Shown: positions 8,386 to 12,943, counted from the first letter of the stretch. The stretch: 56,131 nucleotides of DNA from an uncultured archaeon (GCA_964342815.1 CAYFHS010000014.1:1-56131); one strand, 5' to 3'. Notes: generated from the sequence alone by a model not told the origin. Numbers and translations: made by a program.

Positions 8386-9444
8386 TCAGCCCTGGAGGAA
8401 TTCCATCAATTTTTTTCTGGCTATGTAATCTTCCTGCTGTTGCGGCGGTTTTTTGTTGAAGAAAGAACAGGCGGGATGCAGCACCCCTCCGACACCGCGG
8501 TCCATGGCGATCTTCTCAATACGAATGGCGTCTGTTAGTATGCCAGCCGAGTTATAGGCGTCGATGACCTGCATCGTTATATCGATCCTAACCGGAACAC
8601 CGCCGAATATCCGTCCTTCGATCCTTGTGTAAGCCTCCTTGGTATTTCGAAGGAATGGAATGTAATCCACTGCAGATATCTGGCAATCCACGGTCTCCTG
8701 GTTCGGCAGTTTCGCTATTACTGACTCGGTTTTGGACTGGCGCTTTCCCTGCTCGTACCGATTATTGCTCGTGAGATTGCAGAAGTCCATATCCCCACCC
8801 CAATCCAGTTGAATAGTCCGGTCCAGATACGCGCCTCTGGCAGGAAACAGATTGGCCAGGCCCCGATGAATTATCGTTGCCCCGATCTGGCTTTTTATAT
8901 CGTCACCCACCAGGGGGAGACCGAGACGCTCCGCTTTTTCAACAATATCTTTGTTATTGGCTATATGCGCGGGCATGCCGTTAATAACTCCACACCCGGC
9001 ATCGAGAGCCGCATTCGCATAGAAGGCCGCTGCCTCGTTGGAACCGGTTGGTATCATAATGACAACGACATCAACATTCCTTTTTCTCAGCTCATCGGTC
9101 ACGTCCACAGTTTGTTGTGTTTCGGTTATGGGAACGTAATCCCTAATCCGGCTGTTCAATCCATCCATGACCGGGCCCTTGAGGACCGCAGCGTCCATTG
9201 CCGACGGTTCATAAACCGTAATTGTATTGTTAGGTTCAATGAAAATAGCCTCATTCAAGTCTTTTCCGACTTTATTAGCATTGACTTCGAAAGCAACAAC
9301 AAATTCGATGTCGTTTAGGGAATACTGCGTGATCTCGGACAATACCCCGATTGCGGAATCAGGATTCCTTTTATACATCTCGACCCCCTGAACAAGAGCC
9401 GAGGCAACATTTCCTATGCCAACAAGGGCTACTCGTATTGCCAT
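8386..9444 (-). CDS. ino1: myo-inositol-1-phosphate synthase
   Basis: Rossmann VALVGIGNVASALVQG; GDDIKSQIGATIIHR; QLDWGGDMDFCNL; KRQSKTESV; AYNSAGILTDAIR. Start set at ATG 9444. Confidence 0.92.
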   Translation of the reverse strand: MAIRVALVGIGNVASALVQGVEMYKRNPDSAIGVLSEITQYSLNDIEFVVAFEVNANKVGKDLNEAIFIEPNNTITVYEPSAMDAAVLKGPVMDGLNSRIRDYVPITETQQTVDVTDELRKRNVDVVVIMIPTGSNEAAAFYANAALDAGCGVINGMPAHIANNKDIVEKAERLGLPLVGDDIKSQIGATIIHRGLANLFPARGAYLDRTIQLDWGGDMDFCNLTSNNRYEQGKRQSKTESVIAKLPNQETVDCQISAVDYIPFLRNTKEAYTRIEGRIFGGVPVRIDITMQVIDAYNSAGILTDAIRIEKIAMDRGVGGVLHPACSFFNKKPPQQQEDYIARKKLMEFLQG

Positions 9445-9530
9445 GTGTGCTGGAATCAATTTCTATTATAAAAATGTTATCAGTGGGTGGTACTATTGAA
9501 AATAATCAAATAACTGGTATCATTGCTACC

Positions 9531-10301
9531 CTAAATGAATGAACTGTGATATTCCATGCAAATATCTGCGATCCTCTCCGGTGCACCCGGCCAATGGGTG
9601 AACTGGGGGAACGCGCCAGGGTCCACCAGGACCAATTCTCCTGTACTGTTCTCTCTAACGAGATCGAGATGACCGAACTGCAGCCCGGTAGCGTCTCGCC
9701 AACGTTTAACTGCATCTGAAATATCTTTTTCCGGAGAGTTGAATCTTACAGGAAAATGCTCGTTTTTAAAAGGTTCTTTTTCAAAGACCATTATATCGTT
9801 CTCTATAAAATAACATATTAGGTGCAGGCCCGAAATGTACTGCTCCAAATAATAGAAACGTTTGTTCATGCCAGCGATTTCATCAATGGATCTTAAAAAT
9901 TTTATATCTCTGCTGCCGGTGCCCACAATTCCTTTTAGCATCAACGGGAAATCGGTTTCAGACAATGTCTTCCTGATGGTTTCTGGGAAACCCATGTAAA
10001 AATTGGGAGTTCGGATTCCGGCGATCCTGGCAATGAACGGAAACTGGATCCTGTTCGATACCTTGTGAGTGATATCTGGTTCGGGAATGACCGGGATACC
10101 CATGGATTGGGCCAGATATCCGGCGTAGATGAAAAATAATTTTTTGGATTTCAATATAACGAGATCATATTTTCTGATTTTGTCATCGACAGTCAAGCTC
10201 AAAAGGTTAATGGGGATCACATGGTGATCCTTCTTTTCAAGATCTGCCCGGAAATGCTCAAAGAAGCCTTTCTCCTTCTTTGTATACACGGCGATATTCA
10301 T
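9531..10301 (-). CDS. ATP-grasp protein, ITPK1-like but divergent
   Basis: YDLVILKSK; PLMLKGIVG; YLEQYI; FGHLDL...LVDPGAFPQF matches the ITPK1-type DINxFP segment with N replaced by G. 4-bp overlap with the upstream gene. Confidence 0.7.
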   Translation of the reverse strand: MNIAVYTKKEKGFFEHFRADLEKKDHHVIPINLLSLTVDDKIRKYDLVILKSKKLFFIYAGYLAQSMGIPVIPEPDITHKVSNRIQFPFIARIAGIRTPNFYMGFPETIRKTLSETDFPLMLKGIVGTGSRDIKFLRSIDEIAGMNKRFYYLEQYISGLHLICYFIENDIMVFEKEPFKNEHFPVRFNSPEKDISDAVKRWRDATGLQFGHLDLVRENSTGELVLVDPGAFPQFTHWPGAPERIADICMEYHSSFI

Positions 10302-11128
10302 TCCACGCCCCCTCCTTTGGCAATATCAAGCAGATAATTCCCTAGTATTTCGGGGCCATTCGGCATATAATTGAAATTCGGAATAGCGTTAATGTCCGTA
10401 AGATAAAATTTCCCATTCTCGCAAAGGAAATCCATGGACGTTACACGAAGCCCCGTTGCCTTCATGGCTAAAAGAGCCATTTGTCTCAATTCCGGTATTT
10501 CGTCGATAGGTACTCGTGTTTCCATCTTGTTTGGATTTTCAAGAACGGGGGTTTGCCGATAAAAGAACAAGCGCGGACCAAACCCATAAACTTTGTACTC
10601 GTATTCCGACTCCACAAATCGCTGGTAGAGATGGAATTCGTTAATAATCGACCCCACTCCGGCTTCCTCACCGGTCTTTATATCGGGAACTTTACTACCG
10701 GCACCACCAACAAAGGGAAGCACATTTAGGTCGCGAAGGTGGTTCTGATCGATAATATTTTTTGCAATGAACTTATCGAAACTCGTGGGAGCTTCCCGGG
10801 CCAGGGCGAAATCCGGTACACGCACCCCTGCATTACGAGCAATATTAAAATGCATTAAACGGTGCATTGCGATCCAGACGGACCTGGCGTCATTTACCAC
10901 GATTATTCCCCTAGGCTTGCCGTACTCCTCTGCCAACCTTGCAAGAGTGAGCAGGACATAACCTTTCCCCTTAGTAAAAAAGACATTTTCATCAAAATTC
11001 ACGCCTTGAAAGTCAAGAAAAATATCTTCCTCGACGTATAATTTGACCTTTGCAGTTCTCTCAAGGTAGTCAACGAGAGACCTGATACGAGGGACCTCAT
11101 ATGCATTTGTGATTATGCCTACCTTCAT
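10298..11128 (-). CDS. ATP-grasp protein, ITPK1-like inositol-phosphate kinase candidate
   Basis: FFTKGK; LYQRFV..EYKVYGFG; TSMDF...YLTDINAIPNF, i.e. DIN rather than the RimK-type EVN. Confidence 0.72.
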   Translation of the reverse strand: MKVGIITNAYEVPRIRSLVDYLERTAKVKLYVEEDIFLDFQGVNFDENVFFTKGKGYVLLTLARLAEEYGKPRGIIVVNDARSVWIAMHRLMHFNIARNAGVRVPDFALAREAPTSFDKFIAKNIIDQNHLRDLNVLPFVGGAGSKVPDIKTGEEAGVGSIINEFHLYQRFVESEYEYKVYGFGPRLFFYRQTPVLENPNKMETRVPIDEIPELRQMALLAMKATGLRVTSMDFLCENGKFYLTDINAIPNFNYMPNGPEILGNYLLDIAKGGGVE

Positions 11129-11286
11129 ATCATATTCTCCGGCAGAGGTAATTGAGGATTATTATTTAAACATTTACAGCTTCCGGGGCAATCCAACTAA
11201 TTAATAATCAATCGATACGAAATGGTTAAATAAGATTTCAAAATTTATGAATCACCCTTAAAAATTCACTTTAATAGAGGTAGATC

Positions 11287-12102
11287 ATGGGATTGAGATA
11301 TGTAGGTACCTTGGCCGACCGGGATCACGAATTGATGAAGGCTCTGAATGGGGCTCTTGGGCGCCGCGGTATCAAAATGATTGATATCGGATCCAGCGGT
11401 ACCGTGGATGCCACCGAGCTGTCCCACCATTGTATCGAACTCGTCTTACCAAAGATCACCTCCTCCAAAGAGAACGCAAATCTATTAATAGACCTAAAAA
11501 AAAGCAATGTACGCTGCCTGAATGACCTTGATGCAGTGGATATCTGCCAGAGCAGACGAAGGATTTTTGCGCATTTTCGGAAAAGACTTCCACATCTGAA
11601 TTCGCCAAAATGCTTTGCCGAGATGAAGGATGTTAGGAATGAAATAAAGAAAGGAACTACAATATGGATTAGACGGGATGCGCACAATATTCCTAAAGAG
11701 GAGCGTATTCTGGGTCTGGTGAAATCCGAAAAAGAACTTAATGATATAATGAAAAACAATACATCTGAAGAATTATTTTTTCAGGAATATATGGGCCAAA
11801 AAAATGAGGTCTACAAAGCATACGTGATCGGGAACAAGGTATTCTGCCTCAAGGTTACGGGACCTCAGGATGGATGGGGAACGACCAGAAAATATTCAAC
11901 GGATGTGGTGGAGCTGCCCCGAGACATAAGGAAGATCATGTGTGAGATAGGTGAGGGTTTTCAGATGAATGTTTACGGCGTTGATTTCTTCTTCGGGGAG
12001 AGGGAAATAATTATTATAGATATCAATGATTTCCCAAGCTTCCGGGGTATCCCGAATGCAGTGGAAACAATATGCGATTTTATAGATGAGAAATTCCTAT
12101 AA
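11287..12102 (+). CDS. ATP-grasp protein, strongest ITPK1-like inositol-phosphate kinase candidate
   Basis: LVLPKIT; CLNDLDAVDICQSR; IRRDAH; FQEYM..VYKAYVIG; YGVDF...IIDINDFPSFRG. The order and spacing of these motifs follow ITPK1-family motifs as I recall them. Confidence 0.75.
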   Translation: MGLRYVGTLADRDHELMKALNGALGRRGIKMIDIGSSGTVDATELSHHCIELVLPKITSSKENANLLIDLKKSNVRCLNDLDAVDICQSRRRIFAHFRKRLPHLNSPKCFAEMKDVRNEIKKGTTIWIRRDAHNIPKEERILGLVKSEKELNDIMKNNTSEELFFQEYMGQKNEVYKAYVIGNKVFCLKVTGPQDGWGTTRKYSTDVVELPRDIRKIMCEIGEGFQMNVYGVDFFFGEREIIIIDINDFPSFRGIPNAVETICDFIDEKFL

Positions 12103-12154: not shown

Positions 12155-12943
12155 TTGAAAATAGGGTTATCCACCAGTATCTTCAAGGGCGAAACACTTG
12201 AGTTCATCCTTAAAATGGCCACATACCTAGAGATGGACTGGTTGGAGATAAAGACCGAACTGCTACGGGAGTCAATGGATGAAGCCGCAGAGTTGATTCT
12301 CTCTAAACCCGAATACTCAAAAATCGATAATTTTTCGGTACATTCGGCCCACAAGAACCTGAACCTGGTCAATATTAAACCGGAACAAATTGAAAGACAC
12401 GAAAAAGACCTGGATTTTGCACGAAAGATCGGCTCGGACAGGGTGGTCCTTCATGCAGGGTATTCCGCCGATGGTAATCACGATGAAGAGCTGGAAATCA
12501 TAATCCCAACCATAGAACATTACCTGGACTACACTGAGGGGACGGATATACAAATACTTCTCGAAAACACCATGTTCGGTCGGAACAAGCTCTGCAGCGA
12601 TACCAGAGAACTTCGATCTGTGTTGAAGAATATCGACCACCCGCGTCTGGGGGCCACTTTGGATATCATAAACCTGCTGGGAGTCAAGGAAGAAAAACAG
12701 AAGAAGCGCTACAAGAAGATCAAGGAATGGGTCCGGCATATACACATCAACTCCCTGCCGGTGTACCAAGGTGAGTTCAAGATGAAGAAATTCGTGAAAT
12801 ATTTCTTAAAGGAATTAAAATTCAAGAAGAAACTGAAAAAGGAGAAAGAAGAGAAGTACAATATACCGGTAATATTGGAAGGGAAGACGTCTCTTGCTAG
12901 AGAAATGCAGTTCTATAACGATCTCTGTAGAAGATTGAAATAA
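12155..12943 (+). CDS. Sugar-phosphate isomerase/AP endonuclease 2-type TIM-barrel protein
   Basis: SVHSAH, RVVLHAG, ILLENT, ATLDI, RHIHIN and VILEG metal-barrel motifs. Confidence 0.75.
   Translation: MKIGLSTSIFKGETLEFILKMATYLEMDWLEIKTELLRESMDEAAELILSKPEYSKIDNFSVHSAHKNLNLVNIKPEQIERHEKDLDFARKIGSDRVVLHAGYSADGNHDEELEIIIPTIEHYLDYTEGTDIQILLENTMFGRNKLCSDTRELRSVLKNIDHPRLGATLDIINLLGVKEEKQKKRYKKIKEWVRHIHINSLPVYQGEFKMKKFVKYFLKELKFKKKLKKEKEEKYNIPVILEGKTSLAREMQFYNDLCRRLK

Follow-up and report, generated by a model that had tools for sequence, protein, structure and literature searches.

Introduction

What does an archaeon outside the Asgard group make with an inositol-phosphate synthase gene that sits among three genes for ATP-grasp proteins? 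The question is raised by positions 8386-12102 of a 56,131-nt stretch of DNA (CAYFHS010000014.1, from GCA_964342815.1), called the window below. Here ino1, the gene for myo-inositol-3-phosphate synthase (MIPS), lies with three ATP-grasp genes that we call AG2, AG3 and AG4 (Table 1). Signalling by inositol polyphosphates is regarded as a eukaryotic trait, and to our knowledge prokaryotes have so far had a share in it only through the ITPK1 homologues of Lokiarchaeota, which have been used as an argument about eukaryogenesis. An earlier note, made from the sequence of the window, had taken all three ATP-grasp proteins to be ITPK1-like and the locus to make soluble inositol polyphosphates by stepwise kinases. 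Our own reading, which we hold to be probable, is that the locus is the Thermoplasmatota type-2 version of an Asgard four-gene set and that it makes phosphorylated inositols from glucose-6-phosphate.

The host is, by sequence comparison, a marine Thermoplasmatota archaeon. A 70%-identical protein carries that label, the same locus occurs in a bin named Thermoplasmatota (L007), and the DNA data sets containing the stretch are marine and seawater metagenomes; no RNA data set is listed as containing it. The genome to which the window belongs (own genome below) amounts to 4.35 Mb and is 89% complete.

A four-gene set shared with Asgard archaea

A scan for the AG3 family, using one genome per species, matched 107 species, from which 80 loci were kept. 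Nearly all of these belong to Asgard archaea (Promethearchaeota, Hod-, Hermod- and Thorarchaeota). The gene order is nearly invariant in about 75 Asgard loci, namely ino1, ITPKb, AG3, AG2 and a HAD hydrolase gene, preceded by ITPKa, whose distance to the cluster varies. Asgard ITPKa is strongly PF05770-positive. ITPKb lies on the opposite strand, matches PF05770 faintly and scores 215-245 bits on the AG4 model. Adjacency of ino1 and ATP-grasp genes is seen in about 80 species of several phyla, so that the synteny across archaea that the earlier note had put forward as a check proves to be conserved, and also co-phyletic.

Trees of ino1, AG3, AG2 and AG4/ITPKb each give the same split into two types. 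Mainstream Asgard archaea make up type 1. To type 2 belong Burkholderiales/Alcaligenaceae, two Promethearchaeota-labelled genomes and, from Thermoplasmatota, the window with its genus and family as well as a second family. Each of the four window genes is a member of the type-2 clade, sister to the corresponding Asgard genes, and window ino1 groups with the ino1 genes of Asgard clusters with a clade support of 100. Because the four genes share this split, the trees indicate that ino1, AG4/ITPKb, AG3 and AG2 travel as a unit. The divergent arrangement of AG4 and the AG3-AG2 pair is kept in Thermoplasmatota and in Burkholderiales/Alcaligenaceae. Naming a donor for the transfer was given up, type 2 being sister to type 1 and not nested in it (Shimodaira-Hasegawa-like approximate likelihood ratio test, 92 and 82, in a quick tree).

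AG3 was found in 5 of 401 sampled Thermoplasmatota genomes. The short, cluster-type ino1 is confined, among 41 related genomes, to the four that have a strong AG3, and 36 are without any ino1; the carriers come from two lineages only, hence no statistic is attached to this count. The window locus is a variant of the Asgard cluster and not a copy, because ITPKa and the HAD hydrolase are not present; a PF05770 scan of the own genome for ITPKa matched only AG3 and AG4. The linkage of ino1 to the cluster appears to be functional, given its conservation, the common phylogeny, the co-occurrence and the existence of a second ino1 in the genome (see below). The earlier note knew of no characterised cluster of this kind in a non-Asgard archaeon; the host is indeed new, and the cluster itself was already known from Asgard archaea.

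If the adjacency were meaningless, the ATP-grasp genes would simply happen to lie beside ino1, whose product would go into archaetidylinositol lipids. The own genome does have three cytidine diphosphate (CDP)-alcohol phosphatidyltransferases and two IMPase-family genes, potential users of inositol phosphate, but an adjacency repeated in some 80 species of several phyla, one phylogenetic split common to all four genes, the confinement of cluster-type ino1 within the class to genomes with AG genes, and a second ino1 near an IMPase gene that would serve other needs together make this explanation highly improbable. The three transferase genes are on contigs C23, C50 and C20. None was found anywhere in the window, which extends the earlier observation that none adjoins ino1.

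Three other loci of the scan may be recorded here. A contig labelled Candidatus Nanopelagicaceae bacterium (L048) carries a complete Asgard type-1 cluster; it is probably mis-binned, because a Promethearchaeota genome (L050) has an identical AG3. Downstream of the bacterial trio of AG4 and divergent AG3-AG2, L004 has a DUF333/MliC-like gene and then a gene for a bestrophin-like channel, and L009 has co-oriented open reading frames (ORFs) whose sizes and position match those of this pair (L004:4915-6356 and L009:7181-8717; Burkholderiales/Alcaligenaceae).

The ino1 genes

The product of window ino1 is, by its profile matches, a genuine MIPS, scoring 85 bits with PF01658 and 339 bits over the full length with TIGR03450. 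The ORF is listed from a TTG at 9459. The real start is probably the ATG at 9444, giving 352 amino acids, because orthologues have 352 amino acids and a TATA-like TTTTTATAAT box lies at 9474-9465, about 25 nt upstream of this ATG. The box and the length of the orthologues also point to a leaderless or short-leader transcript, with ino1 having its own promoter downstream of AG2.

An unrelated second ino1 of the own genome lies on contig C21, with an IMPase gene 5 kb away, and general inositol supply therefore does not depend on the window copy. This second gene encodes 399 amino acids with strong PF07994 and PF01658 matches. It heads a run (L098:4217-11098) that continues on the same strand with genes for a TatD-like hydrolase, an AP_endonuc_2 TIM barrel, a UbiA prenyltransferase, an alkaline-phosphatase-like phosphodiesterase, an amino-acid-kinase-family protein and the IMPase. 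The run looks like a different inositol-derived pathway, whose product is perhaps prenylated or a lipid head-group. In Promethearchaeota LW40_45 (L015:5333-7551), two highly divergent MIPS-like ORFs, which score 206 and 245 bits against window ino1, lie directly upstream of the cluster ino1.

AG4 belongs to the ITPK family

The earlier note considered AG4 ITPK-like from its motifs, LVLPKIT, LNDLDAVDICQSR, RRDAH, QEYM..VYKAYVIG, YGVDF and DINDFPSFRG. All are present in the translation, and the assignment is upheld by profile, motif and tree. As a single sequence AG4 scores 23.4 bits with PF05770 (Ins134_P3_kin; cut-off 23), over profile positions 134-199 only, and 26.1 bits with Pfam RimK (PF08443; cut-off 21). 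Its match to ITPK1 in a phmmer search of the PDB is weak (the matches of the three proteins range from E 0.002 to 0.2). Within the AG4 family PF05770 is matched in 18 of 23 members and RimK in 10, and a profile of the family alignment (A1) ties RimK and ITPK1 structures, both at about 1e-6. When AG4 and ITPKb are put in one profile, nine ITPK1/ITPK4 structures (1e-9 to 4e-8) rank above RimK (6.6e-6). The same pair scores 160 with ITPKa versus 94 with LysX in hhalign. In the tree, AG4 (support 98) and ITPKb (95) are sisters (99), the pair adjoins ITPKa, and all of them stand apart from LysX. Because of the joint profile, the hhalign scores and the tree, AG4 can be placed by homology in the ITPK family, as the sister group of Asgard ITPKb.

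The residues conserved in AG4 and ITPKb fit this placement in the C-terminal part. Invariant across 34 sequences are R12, D13, K56, N79, C87, R90, H133, R140, Q166, K177, Y179, D233, D245, N247, D248, F249 and P250. The last six align with FGIDII...IDINAFPGY of human ITPK1, and K177, in the YKxYV strand, is matched by the Lys of the YKVFVVG strand in ITPK1. K189 is basic (K or R in 22 of 23 members) and lies one position off the column of ITPK1 R212. HMMER aligned no part of the N-terminal half to ITPK1; the invariant R12, K56, H133 and R140 are candidates for the remaining inositol-phosphate contacts. The AlphaFold model of AG4 has a predicted local distance difference test (pLDDT) score of 88. 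Of the contacts of ITPK1 itself, H167, K199 and R212 are the most conserved, and K18, K59, H162 and G301 are variable, according to Desfougeres et al. (2019; PMC6900528).

That study also provides the link to an experiment. Four Lokiarchaeum ITPK1 homologues, LcIKA-D, flank IPS genes; LcIKC partly restores inositol hexakisphosphate (IP6 or InsP6) in plc1-delta yeast, and has Arg156 in the place taken in human ITPK1 by His162 (Desfougeres et al., 2019; PMC6900528). In one Lokiarchaeal genome, Arg is found at position 156 only in ITPKb (KNDR156VIG), the other proteins having F156 (ITPKa), D156 (AG3) and I156 (AG2), and R156 of ITPKb corresponds to the invariant R140 of AG4. This suggests that LcIKC, the only archaeal enzyme backed by an experiment, belongs to the AG4/ITPKb type. 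In a literature search, only the 2019 paper and reviews citing it treated the topic of archaeal inositol kinases.

AG3 and AG2 are a separate ATP-grasp pair

Of the motifs noted earlier for AG3, YKVY and DINAIP are both present in the translation. The view that AG3 and AG2 are ITPK1-like in the way AG4 is, in contrast, was overstated: both fall below the PF05770 cut-off, their family profiles and AG3's fold are slightly nearer ArgX/LysX, and AG2 has lost the Asn of D-x-N. A Pfam scan left both below the PF05770 cut-off (17.6 bits for AG3 and 13.1 for AG2 versus 23) and that of RimK, and AG3 below the cut-off of every family, so that in a comparison of the Ins134_P3_kin and RimK profiles, which the earlier note had proposed as a check, AG4 passes both and the other two pass neither. 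The best solved structure for AG3 as a single sequence is PPIP5K2 (phmmer, E 0.002); AG2 weakly matches ArgX and EhITPK1. In hhalign AG3 scores 108 with AG2, 96 with ITPKa and 94 with LysX. In the tree AG3 (support 99) and AG2 (100) are sisters (97), outside the group of ITPKa, ITPKb and AG4. The two thus appear to be paralogues within a new ATP-grasp family whose distances to LysX and to ITPK are about equal, assignable by homology alone neither to kinases nor to ligases. A literature search gave no description of the AG3 and AG2 families, nor of the cluster outside Asgard, and the readable text of the Lokiarchaeum study (PMC6900528), which names four ITPK1 homologues, does not describe them.

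The two paralogues differ in their metal sites. In the AG3 alignment (A2) the invariant residues are K53, R90, K123, Q169, E177, K179, K201, R205, D233, D245 and N247, and T-D-I/V-N is invariant in the family. In the AG2 alignment (A3) they are K51, R84, K123, E153, H160 and K175, together with FGHLDLVR and VDPGxFPQF; here V-D-P-G replaces D-x-N, with a Gly that is invariant in 11 sequences. The AlphaFold2 model of AG3 has a pLDDT of 91.

AG3 and AG2 are predicted to bind each other. Three runs of complex prediction gave interaction prediction scores from aligned errors (ipSAE) of 0.92, 0.92 and 0.93, the best of three controls giving 0.00; in calibration, 58 of 80 solved complexes and 2 of 110 mismatched pairs attained the mark used. 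The model has about 98 contacts, at least 96% of which agree between runs, and a pLDDT of at least 88 for the partners. The modelled interface is pseudo-symmetric, comprising residues 33-41, 57-68, 89-99 and 106-114 of AG3 and 33-40, 54-66, 83-92 and 100-112 of AG2. The gene arrangement is that of a translationally coupled pair, in which the AG2 and AG3 reading frames share four bases, GAATGAAT (ATGA), and GGAGG lies about 10 nt upstream. From the complex prediction and the coupling, we consider a heterodimer of a complete subunit (AG3) and an altered one (AG2) probable.

Relatives of AG3 outside the cluster are many. An exhaustive profile search gave 518 representatives at E <=1e-3. These relatives are numerous and uncharacterised ATP-grasp proteins, about 250-300 amino acids long, with (I/V)D(V/I)NxFP(S/G)(F/Y)xG, and their biochemistry is apparently unexplored. 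AG3-like paralogues that are much more divergent, scoring 115-157 bits with the AG3 model, occur outside the cluster in three related genomes (G158:C294:1579-2208, G170:C142:1861-2622 and G083:C19:4002-4769). The contexts of two distant D-x-N relatives (P0090 and P0079) contain no inositol genes. A bacterial-looking operon on two metagenome contigs (L133:833-6859 and L134:2-4589) has D-x-N ATP-grasp genes annotated RimK/Ins134_P3_kin. It comprises three such genes, a mannitol dehydrogenase gene, an IMPase-family gene and an MFS transporter gene on the first contig, and two such genes, an unannotated 291-amino-acid ORF upstream of an IMPase gene, and an MFS transporter gene on the second; this context points to polyol phosphates and counts on the side of kinases, another polyol-phosphate kinase set being a possible reading. 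Look-alikes in the ESM Atlas were the Asgard clusters themselves and proteins with mixed RimK and Ins134_P3_kin names, nothing decisive.

Kinases or ligases

The contrast drawn in the earlier note between E-x-N ligases and D-x-N kinases is seen in alignments, ArgX, LysX and RimK having E-x-N, and ITPK1, AtITPK4 and PPIP5K2 having D-x-N. AG2, AG3 and AG4 all have D at the metal-site position occupied by E in LysX, RimK and ArgX. The N-x-x-R-G-G loop, which is common to GshB, RimK and LysX, is absent from all three when they are aligned by hhalign to a LysX alignment built from related genomes. All three also score far below the NCBIfam RimK/LysX cut-offs (TIGR00768 and TIGR02144); with TIGR00768, AG4 gives 40.7, AG2 20.5 and AG3 14.2 bits versus a cut-off of 143.4. 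Among the 100 nearest full-length AG3 representatives, 70 are D-type and 27 E-type. Of the latter, 26 score higher on the LysX model, and 52 of the D-type score at least equally on ITPK-type models.

Fold was dropped as a discriminator. In Foldseek, ArgX, LysX, RimK, ITPK1 and PPIP5K all come at about 1e-12. With VIA-align, AG3 gives Z scores of 24.4 with LysX (3vpd; root-mean-square deviation (rmsd) 2.7 Å over 253 residues), 23.9 with ArgX, 23.7 with RimK and 22.1 with PPIP5K2, and AG4 gives 22.3 with LysX 3vpd (rmsd 2.9 Å over 256 residues) and 22.0 with the next ligase. LysX and RimK are just 2-4 Z units above ITPK1, a difference that we judge to be an effect of compact size and not of chemistry. 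The earlier note had named a grouping of the structures with RimK/LysX as an outcome that would speak against kinases; the fold does group that way, narrowly, in a comparison that does not discriminate, and the ligase motifs are absent.

Several observations nevertheless weigh against a kinase cluster fed by ino1. The AG3 and AG4 models are slightly nearer LysX/RimK (Z 22-24) than PPIP5K2 (20.5-22) or ITPK1 (about 20), and the family profiles of AG3 and AG2 favour ArgX/LysX (4e-5 and 1.6e-6) over PPIP5K/ITPK1 (0.01 and 6e-5). AG2 has a LysX-like Gly-rich loop, aligning over the ArgX nucleotide loop FPLxxKxxxGSxxR, it has lost the Asn metal ligand, and its hhalign score is 100 with LysX versus 63 with ITPKa. 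AG4 alone passes the RimK cut-off as well as that of ITPK, and its PF05770 match covers the C-terminal third only. RimK-type enzymes are oligomeric, with homo-oligomers solved, and the heterodimer score may in part be a memory of solved RimK/LysX homo-oligomers. The Burkholderiales/Alcaligenaceae trios have no ino1 within 8 kb, and a whole Alcaligenaceae bin, of undetermined completeness, gave no PF01658 match, so that the substrate of the bacterial trios may not be self-made inositol phosphate. The assignment of LcIKC to ITPKb rests on residue numbering in a different Lokiarchaeal genome. Finally, AG3 and AG2 anywhere, and all type-2 proteins, are known from sequence and models alone.

Many of these points would be expected if AG3-AG2, and perhaps AG4, were ligases of the RimK/LysX kind that convert a carboxylate to an acyl-phosphate and attach it to an inositol-derived acceptor, an amino acid or a peptide: LysX, ArgX and RimK as the best structural matches of AG3 and AG4, family profiles of AG3 and AG2 that match ArgX/LysX first, a predicted dimer resembling RimK-type oligomers, and trios without a nearby ino1. 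The product would then be an inositol conjugate, for instance an ester-linked solute or cofactor, and not a polyphosphate. We regard both the ligases and such a product as unlikely. The metal-site residue is D and not E in all three proteins, in a split that tracks LysX-likeness among the 100 nearest representatives; the LysX loop is absent; TIGR00768 scores reach 14-41 bits versus a cut-off of 143; none of the genes conserved in the cluster encodes an aminotransferase, a dehydrogenase or a carrier protein from which an amine or carboxylate partner might come; and AG4 is clearly on the ITPK side.

A division of labour, in which AG4 alone acts on inositol phosphate and AG3-AG2 are a regulatory or scaffold pair (for example, a sensor of ATP or phosphate) or act on an unrelated co-regulated substrate, would account for the degenerate metal site of AG2 and for AG3 and AG2 being no nearer ITPK than LysX. 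It has to contend with the invariance of every ATP-grasp catalytic residue of AG3 across Asgard, Thermoplasmatota and bacteria, and with the tight conservation of AG3-AG2, which exceeds that of every other part of the cluster and goes with co-divergence with ino1. Some type-2 loci (for example, L001) keep AG3-AG2-ino1 with no AG4 detectable within the stretch examined, which is counted in its favour, and we give it still less credence than the ligases.

A proposed route to phosphorylated inositols

If the cluster does encode kinases, the route would begin with Ino1, expected from its family membership to cyclise glucose-6-phosphate to myo-inositol-3-phosphate. AG4 would phosphorylate this product at further ring positions, by analogy with the published behaviour of ITPK1 and LcIKC and by its homology to them. 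AG3 and AG2 would form the predicted pseudo-symmetric heterodimer, with AG3 catalytically complete, and use the same pool; a second kinase of other positional specificity is the likeliest role, as the conserved linkage, the D-x-N motif and the missing ligase loop suggest. The TIM-barrel protein encoded next to AG4, like the HAD hydrolase in Asgard, may, speculatively, remove or recycle a phosphate. Neither lipids nor IPMK or IPK1 would be needed for making the product, a soluble inositol that would carry several phosphates. In the 89%-complete own genome no match was found to the IPK profile or to His_Phos_2 (phytase/MINPP type); Ins_P5_2-kin was also without a match there, a weak negative since that profile matched no control genome either. 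The idea of a locus for soluble inositol polyphosphates gains from its gene-for-gene homology to the implicated Asgard cluster; stepwise kinases are still an inference, and 'polyphosphates' is an optimistic one.

Taken further, AG3-AG2 might be an unrecognised family of inositol-phosphate kinases beside IPK, ITPK, IPPK and PPIP5K, which with an ITPKb-type enzyme and MIPS would constitute a self-contained and horizontally mobile pathway of prokaryotes that starts at glucose-6-phosphate and ends at highly phosphorylated inositol. Its carriers would be most Asgard archaea, some Betaproteobacteria and two families of Thermoplasmatota. We put this forward tentatively, and would sooner expect it to fail than to hold. 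AG3 and AG2 are obvious candidates for the kinase steps that archaea lack, having no IPMK or IPK1, and the compactness of four genes makes possible a direct test of whether prokaryotes make InsP6-like molecules, and by which enzymes. Should AG3-AG2 be ligases, the product would be an inositol conjugate of unknown kind, and that too would be a novelty.

What was already known is the ITPK-ino1 cluster of Asgard archaea, where most of the gene set lies. What our comparisons add is the host range, in Thermoplasmatota and bacteria, pointing to transfer of the set as a unit between phyla and even into bacteria, and the recognition, from conserved gene order and phylogeny, of AG3 and AG2 as core members of the cluster. 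The Asgard cluster core thus holds two further ATP-grasp families, undescribed in the literature searched.

Locus layout and the neighbouring gene

The coordinates (Table 1) confirm the layout given in the earlier note, with ino1 downstream of two overlapping ATP-grasp genes on the same strand and a third ATP-grasp gene divergent across the spacer.

Table 1. Features of the inositol-phosphate locus in the window.
Feature	Position	Strand	Description
ino1	8386-9459	-	357 amino acids as listed; myo-inositol-3-phosphate synthase (MIPS), short 'cluster type'
AG2	9531-10301	-	256 amino acids; ATP-grasp paralogue, D-P-G replacing D-x-N
AG3	10298-11128	-	276 amino acids; new-family ATP-grasp, TDINxxPNFNY, D...D-x-N metal site intact
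Divergent spacer AG3/AG4	11129-11286		158 bp, AT-rich
AG4	11287-12102	+	271 amino acids; candidate ITPK-family ATP-grasp kinase
TIM-barrel gene	12155-12943	+	xylose-isomerase-like; PF01261 62.9 bits

A GAGGT lies 5 nt ahead of the AG4 ATG. The TIM-barrel gene starts 53 bp 3' of AG4 on the same strand, in the slot taken by the HAD hydrolase gene in the Asgard cluster, and the two genes are also adjacent in L005/L007 and L010. The protein has weak NCBIfam matches to nfo and IolO, its closest PDB sequences are the uncharacterised TIM barrels 4ovx and MJ1311, and no role is assignable to it. A scan for sigma-70 promoters and terminators was set aside, its signal not exceeding that of shuffled sequences and the model being unsuited to an archaeon.

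Comparison with known systems

The locus shares features with four known systems. With LysX, ArgX and RimK it has in common the compact size of about 270-280 residues, the best superpositions (Z 22-24, rmsd 2.5-3.0 Å over about 250 residues) and, in AG2, a Gly-rich nucleotide loop. It differs from them in having D for E at the metal site, no N-x-x-R-G-G, and scores far under the TIGR00768 and TIGR02144 cut-offs; unlike LysX systems, it has no LysW-like carrier or amino-acid biosynthesis genes nearby. In PPIP5K/Vip1/Asp1, the segment YRQxPV...TR of PPIP5K2 aligns with ARKSPA...VRYP of AG3, and D-x-N is aligned too. However, the AG3 profile match is weak (E 0.01), and AG3 has no phosphatase domain and is about 50 residues shorter.

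Eukaryotic ITPK1, which serves a lipid-independent route to soluble InsP6, has the ATP-grasp fold, the D...D-x-N-x-F-P loop and the YKxYV Lys in common with AG4, and the MIPS product is the proposed entry substrate in both cases. AG4 is about 50-70 residues shorter than ITPK1 and lacks its insertions, and the sequence alignment is limited to the C-terminal third. Unlike in the eukaryotic route, searches of the own genome gave no IPMK or IPK1 to finish the synthesis. The fourth system is the Lokiarchaeal LcIKA-D/IPS cluster. Here also ino1 adjoins ITPK1-homologous genes, with ino1, AG3 and AG2 being orthologous to the Asgard cluster genes and AG4 sister to Asgard ITPKb. The window locus differs in lacking ITPKa and the HAD hydrolase, in its Thermoplasmatota host and its relatives in Burkholderiales, in the presence of a TIM-barrel gene, and in a rearranged order that puts ino1 downstream of AG2.

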